Part shown: positions 1,695 to 16,978 of the stretch, piece by piece
Numbering within the stretch: the first letter of the stretch is position 1
Layout: each line of letters begins with the position of its first letter
Assembly: GCA_007128145.1 (NCBI GenBank)
Contig: SKXZ01000224.1
Span: forward strand, 1-37,836
Direction of reading: 5' to 3'
Source of the DNA: Candidatus Nitricultor lacus
Lineage (GTDB): Bacteria > Atribacterota > Atribacteria > Atribacterales > Atribacteraceae
Length of the DNA: 37,836 nt
Position numbers and translations under genes: made by a program
The notes under the pieces: generated by a model
The model's database searches: none
Told to the model about the DNA's origin: nothing
What the model saw: only the letters and a program-made list of their open reading frames with translations

Positions 1695-2948
1695 TCACTT
1701 ACCATCAAACACTGCGAGCAATGCTTCTATTCCCGAGACAATTATAGCACCGGATGAACGTATCGTACCCAACAAGTGCCGGGCTTCTCCTTCCGTGAAG
1801 TCATAATCCTCACGCAGCCCCTCTTCGAAAATTATCACCTGTTTTCCCTTTCGCACCAGGGTGAGAACCTGCCGGAGGTTTTCCAGGTTTCCGTATCCCC
1901 AGTAGGTCGGTGCTACCACAACCCAGCGCGATTGCCCCGCGAGTATCCGGAAACGCTCCGCTGTCTCCGGCCCGAGAGGTGAAAAGGGTTTTTCCGCGGC
2001 CACGGGAAGCCCCAGCCGGCGCGCTGTTTCTTCATCGGTATCAAGCTTGTTGACCATACCCACGCTCACCTGAAAGCCATGTTCGGTGAGGGCGCGCATT
2101 AAGGGTATTCCCGACCCTCCACCACACACGATGTGCACCCGTTCACCCTCCTTCTTTACCGGCTCACGGCGCTTGAGGGGCATGAAGAACGGCCGGTACG
2201 TATGGGGATGGACCTCCTCCAGGAATTCCACATTCAGCAACTCCTCCACTGCGGCGACGTGCATCACCTCATTTATCGGTCCATCACGCAAGATTTTGCC
2301 TGCCTTGAGGAAAAGCGCCCTGGTGCAAAACTGGGATACCAGGTTCAGGTCATGGAACACTCCTACCACCGTCATTCCCTTCCTTCGCAGAGAAAGAAGG
2401 ATATCCATGATCTCGAGCTGATGGAGAACATCCAGATGACTGGTAGGCTCATCCAACAGAAGGAGTTCCGGTTCCTGGGCCAGGGCACGGGCGAGCATCA
2501 CCCTCTGGCGCTCACCACCGGAGAGTTCACCCAGGGGACGGTCGGCAAAGGATGCAGTCGCGGTCGCATGCATGGCTTTTTCCACCGCTTGGTAATCTGC
2601 CTCGCTTTCCCTCCTGAAACGCCGCAGATGAGGGAACCGGCCCAACAGCACCACCTCGAAACAAGGGAGAAAAATATCAGTGGGGACCTCCTGGAACACC
2701 ATTCCCACCACCCGTGCCCACTCCTCCCGGCGCAAAGGGGAGGTCGGATTGCCTTCCAGCTCCACTTTGCCCGAGGAAGGAGGAAGTAACCCGGCTAAAA
2801 GGTACAGCAGGGTGCTTTTCCCGGAACCGTTCGGTCCGGCCACACCCAGAAATTCACCCCGGGGGAGCTGGAAAGAGACCCCTCGCAGGGCTTTACGATC
2901 TCCGTAAGCGAAGCTGAGTGAACGAACGTGCAGGAAAGGCTTCACCAT
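1695..2948 (-). CDS. ABC transporter ATP-binding protein (FepC/BtuD iron-siderophore/cobalamin type) with an extra C-terminal domain of about 160 aa
   Basis: Walker A GPNGSGKST, signature LSGGERQRV and Walker B LLLLDEPTSHLD. It overlaps the upstream permease by 7 nt. The C-terminal part (from about aa 255, VHIVCGGGSGIPL...) is not part of a canonical NBD. Confidence 0.85.
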   Translation of the reverse strand: MVKPFLHVRSLSFAYGDRKALRGVSFQLPRGEFLGVAGPNGSGKSTLLYLLAGLLPPSSGKVELEGNPTSPLRREEWARVVGMVFQEVPTDIFLPCFEVVLLGRFPHLRRFRRESEADYQAVEKAMHATATASFADRPLGELSGGERQRVMLARALAQEPELLLLDEPTSHLDVLHQLEIMDILLSLRRKGMTVVGVFHDLNLVSQFCTRALFLKAGKILRDGPINEVMHVAAVEELLNVEFLEEVHPHTYRPFFMPLKRREPVKKEGERVHIVCGGGSGIPLMRALTEHGFQVSVGMVNKLDTDEETARRLGLPVAAEKPFSPLGPETAERFRILAGQSRWVVVAPTYWGYGNLENLRQVLTLVRKGKQVIIFEEGLREDYDFTEGEARHLLGTIRSSGAIIVSGIEALLAVFDGK

Positions 2949-3973
2949 CGCCCCCTCCTCCTGCGCAGCAGATACACGAAAAATGGTGCTCCCAGAATCC
3001 CGGTAACGATGCCCACCGGCAGTTCCACGGGGTGTACGACGGTTCGGGCGATCACGTCAGCCCACAACAGCACCACTCCACCGGCAAATAAGGAAGCGGG
3101 CAGAAGAAGGCGGTGGTTTTGCCCGCCCAAAAGGCGCACGAGATGCGGTACCACAAGGCCCACGAAACCGATGACACCGCTTACAGAAACACAGGCCGCC
3201 ACCAGGAGAGAAGAGGTGACCAGGAGGCGTTTTTTGACTTTTTCCACGTCAACCCCCATACTCTCGGCGGCCCGTTCCCCCAGGAGAAAAGCATTGAGTT
3301 CACGGGCATGGGCAAGAAGAACCGGTACCGCAAACACGGTAAAAGGAAGAGTCATCCACACTTCACGGTACCCCCGGTTCCACAAGCCTCCCATGATCCA
3401 AAACACTACCTGGTGAAGGCTTTCCCCCGCCATGTACATTCCCAGGGAAATGAGGGCGGAAAAGAAAAAACCAACTGCTACTCCGGCCAAAAGGAGGGTT
3501 TCCAGGGGGAAGCGGTGTCCAATTCTTCCCAGGCTGAAGACCACGGCCGCCGTAAGCAGGGCGAAAGCAAAGGCGGTGACGGGTATGGCAAGAACACTCC
3601 GCGATATACCGGTAAGAATGGCTACCACCGCCCCGAAGGCGGCCCCGGAGCTTATTCCGAGAATATAAGGATCCACCAGGGGGTTACGGAAGAGTCCCTG
3701 CATGACCGCGCCGGAAAGAGACAGCCCTCCGCCTACCAAAACAGCCAGAAAAACACGGGGAAGCCGTATCAGGAGAAGGATAGTCCGCTCGGTTCCCTCA
3801 AGCTGCCCCGGCCGCAGGAAGGCGCCGATATCACTCACATTAAGTGTTCCCCCGCCCACCGCTCCCGCCAGGAGAATACTTAAAAAGAGACCTCCCGCCA
3901 GGGCGACCATCAACAGGCGGTCGCGACGGCGCTCATGGTCACGCCTTGCCCTAGGGGAGCTCAAGTGCTCCAT
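2942..3973 (-). CDS. FecCD/BtuC-family ABC permease
   Basis: 343 aa polytopic protein with typical FecCD motifs (LSGAVMQGLFRNPLVDPYILGISSGA, IGFVGLVVPHLVRLL). It lies between the binding-protein and ATPase genes. Confidence 0.85.
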   Translation of the reverse strand: MEHLSSPRARRDHERRRDRLLMVALAGGLFLSILLAGAVGGGTLNVSDIGAFLRPGQLEGTERTILLLIRLPRVFLAVLVGGGLSLSGAVMQGLFRNPLVDPYILGISSGAAFGAVVAILTGISRSVLAIPVTAFAFALLTAAVVFSLGRIGHRFPLETLLLAGVAVGFFFSALISLGMYMAGESLHQVVFWIMGGLWNRGYREVWMTLPFTVFAVPVLLAHARELNAFLLGERAAESMGVDVEKVKKRLLVTSSLLVAACVSVSGVIGFVGLVVPHLVRLLGGQNHRLLLPASLFAGGVVLLWADVIARTVVHPVELPVGIVTGILGAPFFVYLLRRRRGRW

Positions 3974-4871
3974 GGGATTCTACGCGTGCGGGGTGGAAGA
4001 GAGACGCAAACAAGCGCAATGCTTCGACCACCCTCGGTCCGGAGCGGGAAACGATGTCTGAACTCACCCGGTGTACTCTTCCATTCTCTCGGGCGGAGGT
4101 GGCCCCGAGTCGGGAGTCCGACATCACGAACTCATAGGGCAGGTTTTCAGCTGCTCCATGATCGTCCACCACGGTGATTATCTCCGGATTCCGCCGCAGT
4201 ACTTCCTCAAGATCAAGTGTCACATAGCCTGAAAGCTCACCGGTGAGGTTATGTCCCCCTGCCCGATTGATCAGGTGACCGACAAAAGTATCTCCTCCCA
4301 CCGTCCATACCGGGTCATGCCAGATAAGGTGGAGCACGGAGGGTTTATCCTCTTCTTCCAATCCTTCCAGGAGCGAGAGTACTTCCCCTGCTTCCTCCCG
4401 CAGCGACTCCACTTTCTCAAGTCCTTGCGGGTGATGGGCGATCAAGGACACGATCTCCATGGATTCGAATATTTCCTCGATCGTCCGGGGTTCGAGAACA
4501 AAGACGTCGAGCCCCAGTTCCGTGAGCCTCGTTACCGCTTCATCCGGCGTGAGTGAACTTGCCAGTACCAGGGCAGGAGCGAGTCGGACAACGGCTTCCA
4601 AATCAACCTCGGTAATGCTTCCGATGACATCCTTTTCAGCCACCTCCGGCGGGTAGTTACAATACGTTGTCACACCCGCCAGGCGATCAGCCAAACCCAG
4701 GTAATAGACAATTTCCGTATTGGCCGGTGAAAGTGATATGATCCGCTCGGGGGGTGCTGAAAAACGGAGTGTTCTGCCCTCGTGATCCGTAAACTCCGTA
4801 CCGGCGTGCGCAGAAGGCAAAAAGGTAAGCAAAAGGAGAAAGAGAGTACATACGATACAGCATAACTTCAT
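3951..4871 (-). CDS. Periplasmic/lipoprotein-type substrate-binding protein (BtuF / Fe-siderophore class, cluster A)
   Basis: Start reassigned to ATG at 4871 (MKLCCIVCTLFLLLL..., SD GAGGTGA 7 nt upstream). The longer track ORF (to 4955) runs into the riboswitch expression platform. The sequence pattern IISLSPANTEIVYYLG is typical of BtuF-like PBPs. Confidence 0.8.
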   Translation of the reverse strand: MKLCCIVCTLFLLLLTFLPSAHAGTEFTDHEGRTLRFSAPPERIISLSPANTEIVYYLGLADRLAGVTTYCNYPPEVAEKDVIGSITEVDLEAVVRLAPALVLASSLTPDEAVTRLTELGLDVFVLEPRTIEEIFESMEIVSLIAHHPQGLEKVESLREEAGEVLSLLEGLEEEDKPSVLHLIWHDPVWTVGGDTFVGHLINRAGGHNLTGELSGYVTLDLEEVLRRNPEIITVVDDHGAAENLPYEFVMSDSRLGATSARENGRVHRVSSDIVSRSGPRVVEALRLFASLFHPARVESHGALELP

Positions 4872-4980
4872 GGAAAGATCACCTCGTTTATTGGCATGGA
4901 AAGAGAAGGAGGTGAGGGAGGATATCCCGGGCATGGTCGGCGGAAACCACATCAATCCCCACCTCCTCTTTCCACGAAGA

Positions 4981-5150
4981 GTGGTTGGGGTAACATGGAG
5001 GCAGGTCTCCTGACTCCCGGATCTTCGCGTACGCGTTTGCCTTCCCGGTTTTTACCAGTGGCTCTGTACGAGCGCCGCTCCCCGGTCACAGTGGCGGGAC
5101 CGCGCCGGAATCACACCGGACTTCCCTTTTAAGGCCCGAAGGCCACCCAC
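4981..5150 (-). promoter_or_regulatory. Cobalamin (B12) riboswitch controlling the BtuFCD-like operon
   Basis: Minus strand reads AAAAGGGAAGUCCGGUGUGAUUCCGGCGCGGUCCCGCCACUGUGACCGGGG...GCCACUGGUAAAAACCGGGAAGGC...AGUCAGGAGACCUGCC. This is the conserved cobalamin core plus B12 box (box at 5000-5015). P1 candidate is GUGGGUGG/CCAACCAC. Confidence 0.9.
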
Positions 5151-5168
5151 AGTACTTCAACCGGTCAC

Positions 5169-5196
5169 AGTATACCACCCGGGAAAAAAGAGTCAA
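5169..5196 (-). promoter_or_regulatory. Sigma70-type promoter for the riboswitch/btu operon
   Basis: Minus strand: TTGACT (5196-5191), 16 nt spacer, TGgTATACT (-10 at 5174-5169, extended TG). The predicted TSS is a few nt before riboswitch P1. Confidence 0.7.
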
Positions 5197-5201
5197 GGCT
5201 T

Positions 5202-5398
5202 TAAAAAGCGGGGGAAGGTAGGGCGGGGAAGTGGGGAATTGGAAAGGCGGTGGAATTCCACTACTCACGACTCCCTACTCCCGACTCACTGACTTTGCAC
5301 CCCTTCTACCCTTTTACCCTTATACCCGTCTACTTAGATGCCCGTCTACCCTTTTACCAATATACACATATACACATATACGCGTATACGCATTTCCG
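5202..5398. repeat. Mosaic intergenic repeat block: module C (inverted, 5202-5247), module A (5258-5298, + orientation), module B 8-nt periodic tract (5299-5398)
   Basis: CCACTAC TCACGAC TCCCTAC TCCCGAC TCACTGA heptamers are followed by ACCCTTTT ACCCTTAT ACCCGTCT ... ACACATAT ACACATAT ACGCGTAT ACGCATTT octamers. The same modules recur at 23530-23760 and 31385-31607. Confidence 0.85.
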
Positions 5399-8608: not shown

Positions 8609-8807
8609 TCCGCGTCAGCTCCTTTCTCACTACTTTTCTATACCTCAACCACTCCTTCTCTCCCTCAATTCCCCCGTATCTACAGTTTTCTTATTCACCT
8701 GATGTGATTTGCGATGTGTGAAATGAACCTTATTTATTATAGAATATATATCAATTCCAGAAATATGAGAAAAATTCAAAAGGCTATTGAGGGTTATGGG
8801 CGTTTAT

Positions 8808-8846
8808 TTACTACTCACGATTCACGACTCACGACTCACTGTATTT
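8808..8846 (+). repeat. Module A heptamer repeat, sense-oriented in the 5' leader of the nitroreductase gene
   Basis: TTACTAC TCACGAT TCACGAC TCACGAC TCACTGT, then ATTTCAGAAC GGAGG TTTTCA ATG (8864). Confidence 0.85.
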
Positions 8847-11390: not shown

Positions 11391-11407
11391 ACCGCACCTC
11401 CTCCTTT

Positions 11408-11441
11408 GTAAATGCAGTGAGTAGGGAGTCGTGAGTAGTGG
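11408..11441 (-). repeat. Module A heptamer repeat, sense-oriented immediately 5' of the aminopeptidase SD
   Basis: Minus strand: CCACTAC TCACGAC TCCCTAC TCACTGC ATTTAC AAAGGAGGAGG TGCG GTG. Confidence 0.85.
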
Positions 11442-11593
11442 AAAAAACACCCAAACCCTCAACTGCATTTAACATATTTGATGCCGCAACGTATGTTGCT
11501 GGGCGGCTCCTTTGTGAATGCAGTGATTACATAAAAACATACTTTACCATGAAGAGGATTTTCGGAAAAGTGCATCTCTATAAAAGGCCTGAA

Positions 11594-12055
11594 GGCAGGG
11601 GAATGCCCTTCGGGCCGGGAGACGGGAGTCGTAAGACGTAAGACGGATAAAGACGGGGGAAAGGATTGAAAAATGCGTGAGGGGTGAGGGGCCATGTAAA
11701 GTATGAAGTATGATTTCAGAAGTATGAAGTCAGATTTTCAAATCTACATTCATAAATCCGACTTCAGCAATTCCTGTGTCATTCCGGCATGTGGTAAACC
11801 GGAATCCAGTGGCTTTCTTAAAGGCGGTCTAGGAGTGAGTGTTGAAGGGAAAAAACTTTTGACCGTTGGTGTATTAACCCTAAACTCTAGACTCTAAACC
11901 CTAAACAGCTTTTATAGGGCGGTCTAGGGTCGAGCGTTAAGAGTTTAGAGCAAGGGACGTTCGAAGGTTGAGCACAACCACTCATGGCTAAAAATGGGGA
12001 CGCATCCAGGACCCCACTTCATGCCGGGGTGACGAAATGTGGTTGGCCGTGAGAT
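11594..12055. repeat. Mosaic repeat block X (modules E, C-like, AGTATGA heptamers, I, H, CCCTAAA heptamers, G)
   Basis: It shares ordered modules, in inverted orientation, with 16666-16978. Module G (12009-12055) is 47/47 identical to the reverse complement of 16666-16712. Confidence 0.85.
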
Positions 12056-12634: not shown

Positions 12635-12997
12635 ATGCAAAAAACTCTTCGTCTGGTATCCATTGGTCTCGTCGTCACAGTGTTTCTCTTTACCCTGAGC
12701 GGTCTTGCATCTGCGCATCCACCGTCTGCGGTGAATCTTGAGTACGACCTGGAAACCAAAGTGCTTACCATTACCACGCCCCATAGTGTAGGCGATTCCA
12801 CTGATCACTATATCGACCTTATAACAGTATCACTCAACGGTGAAGAGATCGTTAGACAAAACTTCTTCACCCAAGTGACTTCAGGTGAGCAAGAAGCGAT
12901 TTACCTGGTAATCGACGCAGAAGCCGGGGATACCTTAACGGTTTTTGCCAACTGTAACCGTTTTGGGGATGCAGAAGCCTCACTCACCGTGGAATAG
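12635..12997 (+). CDS. Small secreted protein with superoxide-reductase-like (desulfoferrodoxin Fe-binding fold) sequence pattern
   Basis: Signal peptide ends ...GLASA/HPPS. The HPP..., ...PHSVGDSTDHYID and ...CNRFG spacing resembles SOR centre II ligands (H, H, H, C-N-x-H-G) but lacks the last His. Confidence 0.35.
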   Translation: MQKTLRLVSIGLVVTVFLFTLSGLASAHPPSAVNLEYDLETKVLTITTPHSVGDSTDHYIDLITVSLNGEEIVRQNFFTQVTSGEQEAIYLVIDAEAGDTLTVFANCNRFGDAEASLTVE

Positions 12998-13038
12998 GTA
13001 AATGCGGGCTATGAATCTACAGGCCGTCAGGATACGCC

Positions 13039-13067
13039 TTGACGCAAAAAGGAAAAAGTGGTAGTAT
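13039..13067 (+). promoter_or_regulatory. Near-consensus sigma70-type promoter of orphan RNA-1
   Basis: TTGACG (13039-13044), 17 nt spacer, TGgTAGTAT (-10 at 13062-13067 with extended TG). The predicted TSS is about 13074. Confidence 0.65.
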
Positions 13068-13073
13068 CTTTTC

Positions 13074-13252
13074 AGATCACGGGTTCCGAGGAGTTTTTTG
13101 GTCCGAAGGCCGGAAGCCGTCCTGGGAAACACCTGCAAGAGGGACGACCGGCATGTTCTGTAACCGCCGGAAGATATGAGGGGAAAGATGCGTTGCCCCG
13201 GCGTGAGAGAGAACTTCCAGGTTCGTTGGGACCCGTGATCTTTTGTATTTTT
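13074..13252 (+). ncRNA. Orphan structured small RNA (RNA-1), class unassigned
   Basis: A 14 bp closing helix pairs AGAUCACGGGUUCC (13074-13087) with GGGACCCGUGAUCU (13228-13241) and is extended by GGAGUU/AACUUCC. Three internal hairpins follow (GGUC-CGAA-GGCC; CCGG..CGUCC/GGACG..CCGG; CGCC..GGGG/CCCC-GGCG), then the 3' tail UUUUGUAUUUUU. There is no credible ORF and no downstream same-strand gene. Confidence 0.55.
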
Positions 13253-13275
13253 GGAACAGAAGAGGCTTAATCCCT

Positions 13276-14115
13276 CTACCCTTTGACCGCTCCTTCAGTC
13301 AGACCACCTACCAGATGGCGTTGTACAAAGAGAAAGATAACGAACACCGGTACACAAATAAGGACTGAGGCGGCCATCAAATTCCCCCAGATCGTCTCAT
13401 ATTGCCCCACAAAATCAAAAATGCCTCGCGGGAGTGTGCGTTTTTCCGCGCTGGTGATGAAGGTGAGCGCGAACATAAATTCCTGCCAGGTAATAAAGAA
13501 AACATAGGAAGCGGTGGCTCCGATCCCGGGCCGTACCAGGGGAAGTACTACTTTCCAGAATGCCTGCCAGCGGGTACACCCGTCAATAAGGGCCGCTTCT
13601 TCCAGGTCCCTGGGGATACCGGTGAAAAACCCGCGTAACAACCACACCCCCACCGGCACGGAAAAAGCAAGATAAGCGATAATGAGCGATAAAAATGAAT
13701 CGATAAGACCAACCCTGCTCATGATGCGGTAGAGAGGAACTATGATCGCTGCGAGGGGAAAAAGCTGGCTCAAAAGGAGCAGGGTAAAAAATCCCATCCT
13801 CCCCGGGAAATACAGCCGGGCAAAACCGTAGGATGAAAATATCGCTACCGCTACTACGACTAATGTAGTACTGCCGGCTACCAGGAAACTATTGAGAAAA
13901 TAACGGGCAAACATGGATCCCCTGCCGAACACATGGAAATAGTTCACGACCGTCGGCCGCTGGGGAATCAAGCGGGGTGGGACCGTAAACTGTTCATCCG
14001 GTTCCTTGAGAGACATGGAAATCATCACGGCAAAAGGAAAGAGCACAAAAGCCACCAGCAGTACCACGAATATGCCGGTGACCACTTTTTTGCGGGTTTC
14101 TATGGCACGCATCAT
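13276..14115 (-). CDS. CUT1-family sugar ABC transporter permease (MalG-like)
   Basis: 279 aa with 6 TM segments and the EAA loop DLEEAALIDGCTRWQAFWKVVLPL. It overlaps the upstream permease by 4 nt. Confidence 0.85.
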   Translation of the reverse strand: MMRAIETRKKVVTGIFVVLLVAFVLFPFAVMISMSLKEPDEQFTVPPRLIPQRPTVVNYFHVFGRGSMFARYFLNSFLVAGSTTLVVVAVAIFSSYGFARLYFPGRMGFFTLLLLSQLFPLAAIIVPLYRIMSRVGLIDSFLSLIIAYLAFSVPVGVWLLRGFFTGIPRDLEEAALIDGCTRWQAFWKVVLPLVRPGIGATASYVFFITWQEFMFALTFITSAEKRTLPRGIFDFVGQYETIWGNLMAASVLICVPVFVIFLFVQRHLVGGLTEGAVKG

Positions 14116-16316: not shown

Positions 16317-16332
16317 GAAATATTCCTCCCTT

Positions 16333-16383
16333 GTGAATGCAATGAATAGGGAGCAGGGAGTCGTGAGTAGGGGGAGGAGTAAA
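16333..16383 (-). repeat. Module A heptamer repeat, sense-oriented immediately 5' of the binding-protein SD
   Basis: Minus strand: CCCCTAC TCACGAC TCCCTGC TCCCTAT TCATTGC ATTCACA AGGGAGG AATATTTC ATG. Confidence 0.85.
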
Positions 16384-16613
16384 TCCCTCATTTCTAATGG
16401 CTCGCGGATCCCCTTTCCCCATTTCTCCCCTTTCCCCTTATTTTACAGGGATCCAGAGGCTTCTTATCAAACAAGAACCAAGGAAACAGAATTCCCATCC
16501 CTGTTTATTACATAAAGTGACAAGCTTACTCCATACGCTAATAACCGGATAATGCACCTCTCATTTTTACACTCCAAATCGTTTTCTGATTATTTTTTAT
16601 CACCTCCCCGGTA

Positions 16614-16653
16614 GGTGCAGTGAGTAGGGAGTGGGGAGTCGTGAGTAGTGGAA
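16614..16653 (-). repeat. Second module A copy upstream of the same operon
   Basis: Minus strand: CCACTAC TCACGAC TCCCCAC TCCCTAC TCACTGC ACC. Confidence 0.85.
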
Positions 16654-16665
16654 ACTCAATTCTTA

Positions 16666-16978
16666 ATCTCACGGCCAACCACATTTCGTCACCCCGGCAT
16701 GAAGTGGGGTCCAGAGGCAGAGGCAGTGCCCCATGCCGGGGTGACACAACAGGGCATTCCCCGCTGTATTCGTCCCCTGCATTTTAAAGCCACTGGATTC
16801 CGGCTTACTCCATGCCGGAATGACACAGGATATTGATGATTTCAGATTTATGATTGTAGATTTGTAAAGCCTTTCCACTTCCCCATTTCAACAATTCCCC
16901 GCCTCACCTTCCCCGCTCCTCCTTCCCCGGCCTTTATCCGTCTCACTGCCCGAAGGGCATATCCCGCTGTATTCGTCC
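16666..16978. repeat. Mosaic repeat block Y (modules G, E-like, H, I, C, E), the inverted counterpart of block X
   Basis: Its reverse complement aligns module by module with 11594-12055. Its distal part (16888-16978) is inside the 3' end of the URO-D-family ORF. Confidence 0.85.

Follow-up and report, generated by a model that had tools for sequence, protein, structure and literature searches.

A probable independently transcribed structured RNA gene convergent with a sugar-uptake operon in Candidatus Nitricultor lacus and related Atribacteraceae

Based on its sequence and on comparison with related loci, the region 13074-13252 (+) of a contig from Candidatus Nitricultor lacus (Atribacteraceae) probably represents a genuine, independently transcribed non-coding RNA gene whose family is not described in Rfam. 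The window, i.e., the whole stretch of DNA analyzed, comprises 37,836 nt of contig SKXZ01000224.1 (assembly GCA_007128145.1). An earlier note on this DNA had described an orphan structured RNA of unassigned class that possesses a promoter and a U-tail of its own; the silence of Rfam, the conservation, the substitution pattern and the non-coding character of the locus all agree with that description. Members of the Atribacterota abound in subsurface and anaerobic-digester communities, and hardly any have been cultured. An RNA gene delimited from its promoter to a putative terminator, with a complex fold and outside every Rfam family, provides a seed for a new family model and may represent a regulator linked to sugar uptake. 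The practical value of the finding is modest: a gap in annotation is closed, structural and functional studies gain a candidate, and nothing known is overturned.

Genomic context and homologues

Upstream of the RNA and on the same strand, an ORF encoding a 120-aa protein is located (12635-12997, +). Downstream, the last permease gene (13276-14115, -) converges on the RNA gene and closes an operon encoding a ROK regulator, a URO-D-like protein, a solute-binding protein and two permeases. Plausible plus-strand genes are absent for about 16 kb downstream of the RNA, and the same arrangement was found in the two related loci introduced below. Accordingly, the statements that the RNA lies tail-to-tail with the sugar permease operon and is not a 5' leader, as had been proposed from the sequence, were both borne out. 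The reading as a riboswitch or 5' leader was rejected, since a same-strand gene downstream is lacking and no known aptamer class was matched.

The 120-aa protein has one homologue among 5.8 billion proteins (71% identity) and resembles desulfoferrodoxin at a level below the threshold (E=0.004, 18 bits, cut-off 22). This homologue led to locus L003, which carries the same RNA in the same place, with the 120-aa gene upstream of it. L003 is identical over the overlap to L011 (PWXL01000005.1, "Candidatus Atribacteria bacterium CSSed11_91"). A third lineage, L027/L028 (GCA_035477455.1), encodes a permease 85% identical to that of the window; its RNA copy, at about 4855-4992 (-), is again convergent on the permease and is strongly diverged. 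With about 127 nt, the L027 copy is 40 nt shorter and has a different interior. It was detected by nhmmer (E=0.03), by a covariance model (20 bits, E=4e-4) and by pairwise alignment to the window (z about 5). Its fold is no better than shuffles (z=-0.82), and the fold closed by the terminal helix P1 (-39.8 kcal/mol) is nearly isoenergetic with a minimum free energy (MFE) structure (-41.5 kcal/mol) that uses a local canonical terminator hairpin. Moreover, the 120-aa gene is absent from this locus and no same-strand gene lies upstream of the RNA. The L027 copy may be decaying.

In contigs 99.9% identical to the window, the RNA is invariant. The contigs of the RNA-bearing organisms originate from ERZ27301262, SRR7083929, SRR490155, SRR9289417 and GCA_035477455.1. 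Protein-based synteny look-ups, 11 in all, located the RNA only beside permeases at least 85% identical to that of the window. An exact-motif scan of about 186,000 species genomes, a mode of search that misses diverged copies, returned 23 matches, of which only L011 was homologous. Metagenome scans, which likewise required the exact motif, yielded 0 matches and then 54 chance matches inside coding sequences. A motif scan of the viral collection gave 0 matches, and blastn against plasmids and phages gave none. One copy is present in the 37.8-kb window, and within 134 kb of Atribacterota loci only the syntenic copies were found. As far as sequence searches reach, the RNA appears to be distributed in a small Atribacteraceae clade of three related uncultured lineages. 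A full-text literature search on Atribacterota non-coding RNAs found nothing.

Promoter and transcript ends

The following features delimit the predicted transcription unit:

13039-13044, plus strand: -35 hexamer TTGACG from the promoter scan; same hexamer in L003
13059-13067, plus strand: extended -10 element TGgTAGTAT from the promoter scan; TG and TAGTAT identical in L003
13074-13252, plus strand: predicted RNA transcript of about 168-179 nt; putative start 6-7 nt past the -10 element, putative end within the U-tract
13242-13252, plus strand: U-tract UUUGUAUUUUU, putative intrinsic termination site; abuts the closing helix

The promoter TTGACG-17-TGgTAGTAT, reported in the earlier note, is present at 13039-13067; its spacer measures 17 nt, and 6 nt separate the -10 element from the closing helix. 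By itself, a match of this kind is not above chance (1 found versus 1.3 expected in this window); the promoter carries weight because it is kept in a second species. L003 has the same two hexamers, TG and 17-nt spacing as the window, while the spacer sequence and the upstream DNA are unrelated. The promoter of the L027 copy is weaker (TGaTAGCCT, under the scan threshold) and lies at equal distance from the helix. An own promoter is a criterion of an independently transcribed sRNA gene, and the sequence comparison indicates such a promoter for the RNA gene.

At the other end, TTTGTATTTTT (13242-13252) directly follows the closing helix, matching the claim of a U-tail in this place. The U-run abuts the helix in three of three lineages, and the DNA past it is unalignable. 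At the 3' end, the terminator scan revealed only a local 5-bp hairpin in the window and L003 copies and a canonical 7-bp hairpin in L027. The closing stem of the window and L003 copies encloses 136 nt, which is atypical for an intrinsic terminator.

These ends bear on the reading that the RNA is only the structured 3' UTR and terminator of the upstream DUF3221/120-aa operon and not a gene of its own. In the interval from the stop codon of the 120-aa gene (12997) to the RNA, the scan found no terminator; the 120-aa gene, being without its own terminator, therefore probably uses that of the RNA, so that its mRNA would end at P1 and the U-tract. Furthermore, the 120-aa gene precedes the RNA in L003 too. 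However, the -35 and extended -10 elements are exactly kept while the surrounding intergenic DNA has diverged, L027 has the RNA without the 120-aa gene, and a simple terminator needs no conserved interior of 136 nt at 83.5% identity. The 3' UTR reading is thus considered improbable. A related arrangement is known from type I 3'-UTR-derived sRNAs such as DapZ, which possess their own internal promoter and a terminator common with the upstream mRNA. Similarly, the RNA described here follows a terminator-less same-strand gene, has a private promoter and would share its terminator; it differs from type I sRNAs in that its promoter is intergenic and its L027 copy lacks an upstream same-strand gene.

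Conservation and non-coding character

The RNA shares 83.5% identity between the window and L003. For the neighboring permease gene, identity amounts to 78% over the whole gene and to 41% at four-fold sites, which are saturated, and the intergenic DNA upstream of the -35 box and past the U-tract is unalignable. Purifying selection on the RNA against a saturated neutral background is thus supported by the sequence comparison. Substitutions avoid paired positions: 118 of the 171 alignment columns are paired, and these contain 11 of the 29 differences (binomial P=5e-4). Moreover, a fold predicted from nothing but the window sequence has 59 pairs, and L003 can still form 56 of them.

Four short ORFs overlap the RNA region, three on the plus strand (13039-13179, 13058-13270, 13243-13368) and one on the minus strand (12980-13138). 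The ORF 13058-13270, which the initial description had taken as the only overlapping one, is present, and the word "only" had to be dropped. Substitutions are distributed 6/10/9 over the codon positions (p=0.59), i.e., without three-base periodicity, and a 1-nt indel breaks every candidate reading frame. A small-protein gene was rejected on these grounds, none of the overlapping ORFs being conserved. From the aligned sequences it is concluded that the locus encodes a conserved non-coding RNA and not a small protein.

Predicted secondary structure

The MFE of the 179-nt stretch is -70.2 kcal/mol (z=-2.84), and 0 of 200 dinucleotide shuffles were as stable. The reverse strand folds worse (-56 kcal/mol, z=-2.14); seven G.U pairs together with this weaker antisense fold indicate the plus strand. 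For the L003 copy, the fold reached z=-4.27. The MFE structure consists of a closing helix and three arms radiating from a junction, with the following parts:

13074-13089, plus strand: 5' strand of the closing helix P1; 16 bp with 13226-13241, including 2 G.U pairs
13098-13113, plus strand: arm H1, hairpin GGUC-CGAA-GGCC, extended by U.G pairs
13118-13146, plus strand: arm H2, bulged hairpin with a GGGAAAC loop region
13147-13225, plus strand: arm 3, long and irregular, with three helical segments and internal loops
13176-13189, plus strand: purine-rich apical-loop segment AUGAGGGGAAAGAU of arm 3, 14 nt, candidate functional site
13226-13241, plus strand: 3' strand of P1, pairing with 13074-13089

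A closing helix starting at about 13074 had been claimed before, with 14 bp to 13228-13241; the helix stands, and its length is corrected to 16 bp with 13226-13241. The repeat search recovered P1 as 19-nt arms with 84% complementarity. The block GGUUYGUUGGRACYCGU in the region of the P1 3' strand is the best conserved stretch over the three lineages. Across these lineages, P1 shows two double-sided compensatory changes, namely at pair 4/165 (U-A in the window, C-G in L003 and L027) and at pair 5/164 (C-G in the window and L003, U-A in L027), as well as five further one-sided compatible changes; one cell is broken, in L027. The covariation is based on three distinct homologues, and a shuffle control, having two informative sequences, was uninformative. 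P1 pairing is backed by covariation in the aligned sequences and is the best-supported part of the structure. The inner half of P1 has a competitor in a local 5-bp hairpin (13220-13233).

Within the interior, H1 has three of its four loop bases changed in L003 with the stem intact, and it is absent from the covariance-model alignment of L027. In H2, two pairs of the L003 copy differ on one side in a compatible manner (U.G to C-G and U-A to U.G); at the aligned position L027 has a hairpin of different sequence, the alignment there being of low confidence. Of 19 predicted pairs in arm 3, 17 are invariant, one shows a compatible change and one isolated pair is broken in L003. The apical region of arm 3 forms a 27-nt loop, in which AUGAGGGGAAAGAU is identical in L003 despite frequent substitutions elsewhere in the same loop; its core GGGAAAG is kept in L027. 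In addition, an alternative 5-bp pairing of 13160-13164 with 13192-13196 covaries (GUAAC/GUUGC to GUGAC/GUCAC). This pairing crosses the invariant CGCCGG/CCGGCG upper helix with linkers of 0 and 1 nt, and the two may represent alternative conformers.

The earlier claim of three hairpins around a junction agrees with the three arms of the MFE structure, and a rod-like fold nevertheless fits the substitutions as well as the branched one. The rod loses only on energy: the best rod reaches -57.9 versus an MFE of -70.1 kcal/mol in the window and -68.2 versus -83.4 kcal/mol in L003, i.e., it is 12-15 kcal/mol worse. The branched interior is therefore a modeled shape that rests on thermodynamics and on the placement of substitutions, and it is not uniquely determined.

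Comparison with known RNA families

The Rfam search proposed in the earlier note was carried out. At gathering thresholds, Rfam 15 returned nothing for this RNA over the whole window, the sole match being a cobalamin riboswitch (4983-5163). A permissive scan of 12950-13350 (E<=10) gave no match, and permissive scans of the L003 and L027 copies gave nothing apart from noise far below threshold. As a control, the permissive mode found a tRNA-Leu in a related locus at 44.8 bits. Gathering mode applied to four loci together missed this tRNA (cut-off 29), and the permissive scans were relied on.

In several respects the RNA resembles 6S RNA, namely in its size of about 170-190 nt, in the long closing stem joining both ends, in being a stand-alone gene and in its strong promoter of the sigma-70 type; by analogy, it would also be a stable trans-acting molecule. 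A highly divergent 6S RNA, serving the phylum as a promoter mimic that sequesters RNA polymerase, would account for the length of about 170 nt, the closing stem and the strong housekeeping-type promoter, and a rod-like fold compatible with the substitutions does exist. Against this, neither RF00013 nor any other 6S model matched the three copies at E<=10. The best rod, besides being 12-15 kcal/mol worse in both species, has no central bubble open on both sides: most of its unpaired nucleotides lie on one side, with about 10 nt versus 4 nt, and the preferred predicted fold is a four-way junction. Furthermore, the short L027 copy with its different interior implies fast evolution for a housekeeping RNA. 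A 6S RNA was hence rejected as family assignment and is regarded as very improbable, in line with the view expressed before that the RNA is probably not 6S.

Other assignments were likewise rejected. For SRP RNA (RF00169/RF01854), no Rfam match was obtained, the domain IV motif is absent, as had been noted previously, and the apical loop comprises 27 nt and is not a tight GNRA hairpin. A terminal helix joining the 5' and 3' ends with hairpins branching near it is shared with SRP and Y RNAs. The window copy contains UGGUCCGAAGG, which occurs as well in the 5' strand of human Y RNAs. No Rfam match to Y RNA was found, and the UGGUCCGA string represents a non-conserved hairpin loop, L003 having GGUCUUCA instead. 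As tRNA or tmRNA the RNA was rejected because ARAGORN found none in the window, L003 and L027 and the Rfam model RF00005 was silent.

RsmY, RsmZ and CsrB resemble the RNA in possessing their own promoter, a U-tract end, several hairpins and purine-rich, GGA-containing loops. Csr/Rsm sRNAs titrate a protein, which would be one possible mode of action for the invariant loop. In contrast to them, the RNA has a single dominant loop motif and not repeated A(N)GGA hairpins. A Csr/Rsm sponge was rejected, GGA counts being 7, 8 and 5 in the three copies versus 6.7, 5.9 and 3.8 in dinucleotide shuffles (P=0.56, 0.16 and 0.31). Typical sRNAs composed of a seed and a terminator are far less structured than this RNA.

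The same slot in other Atribacterota

Distant relatives keep the sugar operon without the RNA, and the slot holds other features in them. In L035-37 and L096 it contains a tRNA-Leu(GAG) gene behind a near-consensus TTGACG-17-TGcTATAAT promoter. These are Caldatribacteriaceae-like relatives, and their tRNA gene, located at 3850-3936 (-) in L035, converges on the same permease gene and encodes the CCA end. In L029/30, L034, L094 and L095, the slot is occupied by oriC and dnaA. DnaA-box-rich intergenic regions (TTATCCACA boxes) were observed at L029 4834-5359, L034 789-1147, L094 1253-1778 and L095 2099-2564, followed by dnaA and dnaN. Since the permease is followed there by DnaA boxes and dnaA/dnaN, the sugar operon abuts the replication origin in these genomes, and the slot represents a synteny breakpoint. 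Other genes occupy the slot in L031-33 and L038/39. An oriC element was rejected for the RNA locus itself, DnaA boxes not being enriched in the window.

Next to the RNA copy of L027, a frameshifted and 5'-truncated TnpB/Cas12f-like fragment (about 5042-5304, +) abuts the promoter side on the opposite strand; its frameshift-corrected translation matches the Pfam Cas12f1-like TNB domain (E=1.6e-7). The L027 copy was rejected as a TnpB guide RNA (omega RNA), given that the fragment lies on the opposite strand with its 3' end pointing away from the RNA.

The RNA could be conceived as a functionless relic left behind by a tRNA gene or by a mobile element, such as a MITE with terminal inverted repeats. 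Such an origin would fit the tRNA-Leu(GAG) with its similar TTGACG-17-TGcTATAAT promoter in the slot of sister lineages, the character of the slot as a hot spot of rearrangement, where oriC/dnaA, a tRNA gene or other genes lie depending on the lineage, the TnpB pseudogene fragment abutting the L027 copy, and a terminal helix that is readable as inverted repeats. However, alignment to the slot tRNA-Leu was not above shuffles (z=1.4, -0.7 and 0.4), so that derivation from this tRNA was rejected, and ARAGORN and the Rfam tRNA model were negative. A MITE was rejected as well: the RNA is single-copy in the window and in the 134 kb of Atribacterota loci, phage and plasmid records are dissimilar, and the helix arms change in ways that maintain their complementarity and not their sequence. 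A relic would not remain 83.5% identical with neutral sites saturated, and there is hardly any likelihood that the RNA is one.

Proposed mode of action and relation to the convergent operon

For the preferred reading as an independent RNA gene, the following course is proposed. A promoter of the sigma-70 type with extended -10 element would start transcription at about 13074, as judged from sequence and conservation. The first 16 nt would then pair with 13226-13241, locking both ends in a long helix abutting the U-tract; P1 and the U-tract presumably act as terminator stem, giving rise to a discrete RNA of about 170 nt. The interior is predicted to fold into three arms around a junction. With both ends protected, the product would be a stable trans-acting RNA whose exposed invariant loop AUGAGGGGAAAGAU may contact a protein or a pyrimidine-rich RNA, a guess derived from the invariance of the loop. 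RNAduplex target predictions against start regions in the window gave inflated, uninterpretable duplexes, and complements of the loop motif were scattered, with no obvious start-site target. The fixed convergent position at the 3' end of the ROK/ABC sugar-uptake operon makes this operon the first candidate for a functional link.

This position also lends itself to a reading in which the RNA regulates the sugar ABC operon in cis, as an antisense RNA or through convergent transcription. Transcripts of the permease gene would run on into the RNA gene, and either the abundant sRNA would pair with their 3' UTR or the strong convergent promoter would cause transcriptional interference; in a variant, the extent of antisense read-through would depend on a ligand-controlled terminator, comparable to the antisense RNA under S-box control at the ubiG operon of Clostridium acetobutylicum. 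The RNA 3' end lies 24-35 nt from the permease stop codon and is convergent in each of the three lineages, and synteny is constant on the permease side while the opposite flank varies. The scan found no terminator-like site on the minus strand between the permease stop codon and the RNA; the permease operon being without a recognizable terminator before the RNA gene, antisense overlap is possible. Moreover, a junction fold with invariant loops resembles an aptamer. On the other hand, the 16-bp P1 has no comparably strong competitor, the local 5-bp hairpin being the only one, and ligand-dependent termination is therefore hard to picture. In addition, relatives run the same operon without the RNA, and ends locked in a helix make a poor linear antisense partner. 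Cis-antisense regulation, the foremost of the alternative mechanisms, is judged unlikely.

Riboswitch-controlled antisense RNAs at operon 3' ends include, besides the S-box RNA of C. acetobutylicum ubiG, the B12-controlled AspocR and EutX of Listeria and Enterococcus. The RNA shares with them a structured character, its own promoter and the convergent location at the 3' end of a transport operon. It differs in that no known aptamer was matched, the 16-bp putative terminator stem is very stable without an evident antiterminator, and overlap with the operon transcript is putative.

A more speculative and somewhat less probable proposal holds that the RNA represents a new class of compact four-way-junction RNAs, which would bind a protein or small ligand via the invariant loop and the junction and would control the convergent ROK/ABC operon by antisense overlap at the operon 3' end or by conditional termination. 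The switch would be provided by the mutually exclusive pairings 13160-13164/13192-13196 and CGCCGG/CCGGCG.

Further features of the window

Additional features were observed in the window. A long, patchy inverted repeat (11598-12055 / 16666-16965) consists of five collinear blocks, including one of 47 nt (100%) and one of 45 nt (93%). Its two copies precede the DUF3221 gene (+) and the solute-binding-protein gene (-), respectively, and the repeat therefore brackets the two convergent units meeting at the RNA. Both units may share it as a leader or promoter region, or it may mark the ends of a mobile or invertible segment of 4.6 kb. Rfam reported nothing at either copy.

Furthermore, a short repeat, about 25-50 nt long and with a GCAGTGAGTAGGGAGTCGTGAGTAGTGG-like core, is dispersed over intergenic sites of both strands and resembles a REP-type element. 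It was absent from the related loci fetched for comparison. In the window it is found at about 5256-5280, 8779-8832, 11400-11448, 11507-11529, 16325-16373, 16603-16654, 23594-17 and 31440-67.

Finally, the cobalamin riboswitch RF00174 (4983-5163, -) was matched at full length with 109 bits. It lies upstream of an operon encoding a periplasmic binding protein (3951-4955), a FecCD permease (2942-3973) and an ABC ATPase (1695-2948), which looks like a B12-uptake system under riboswitch control.
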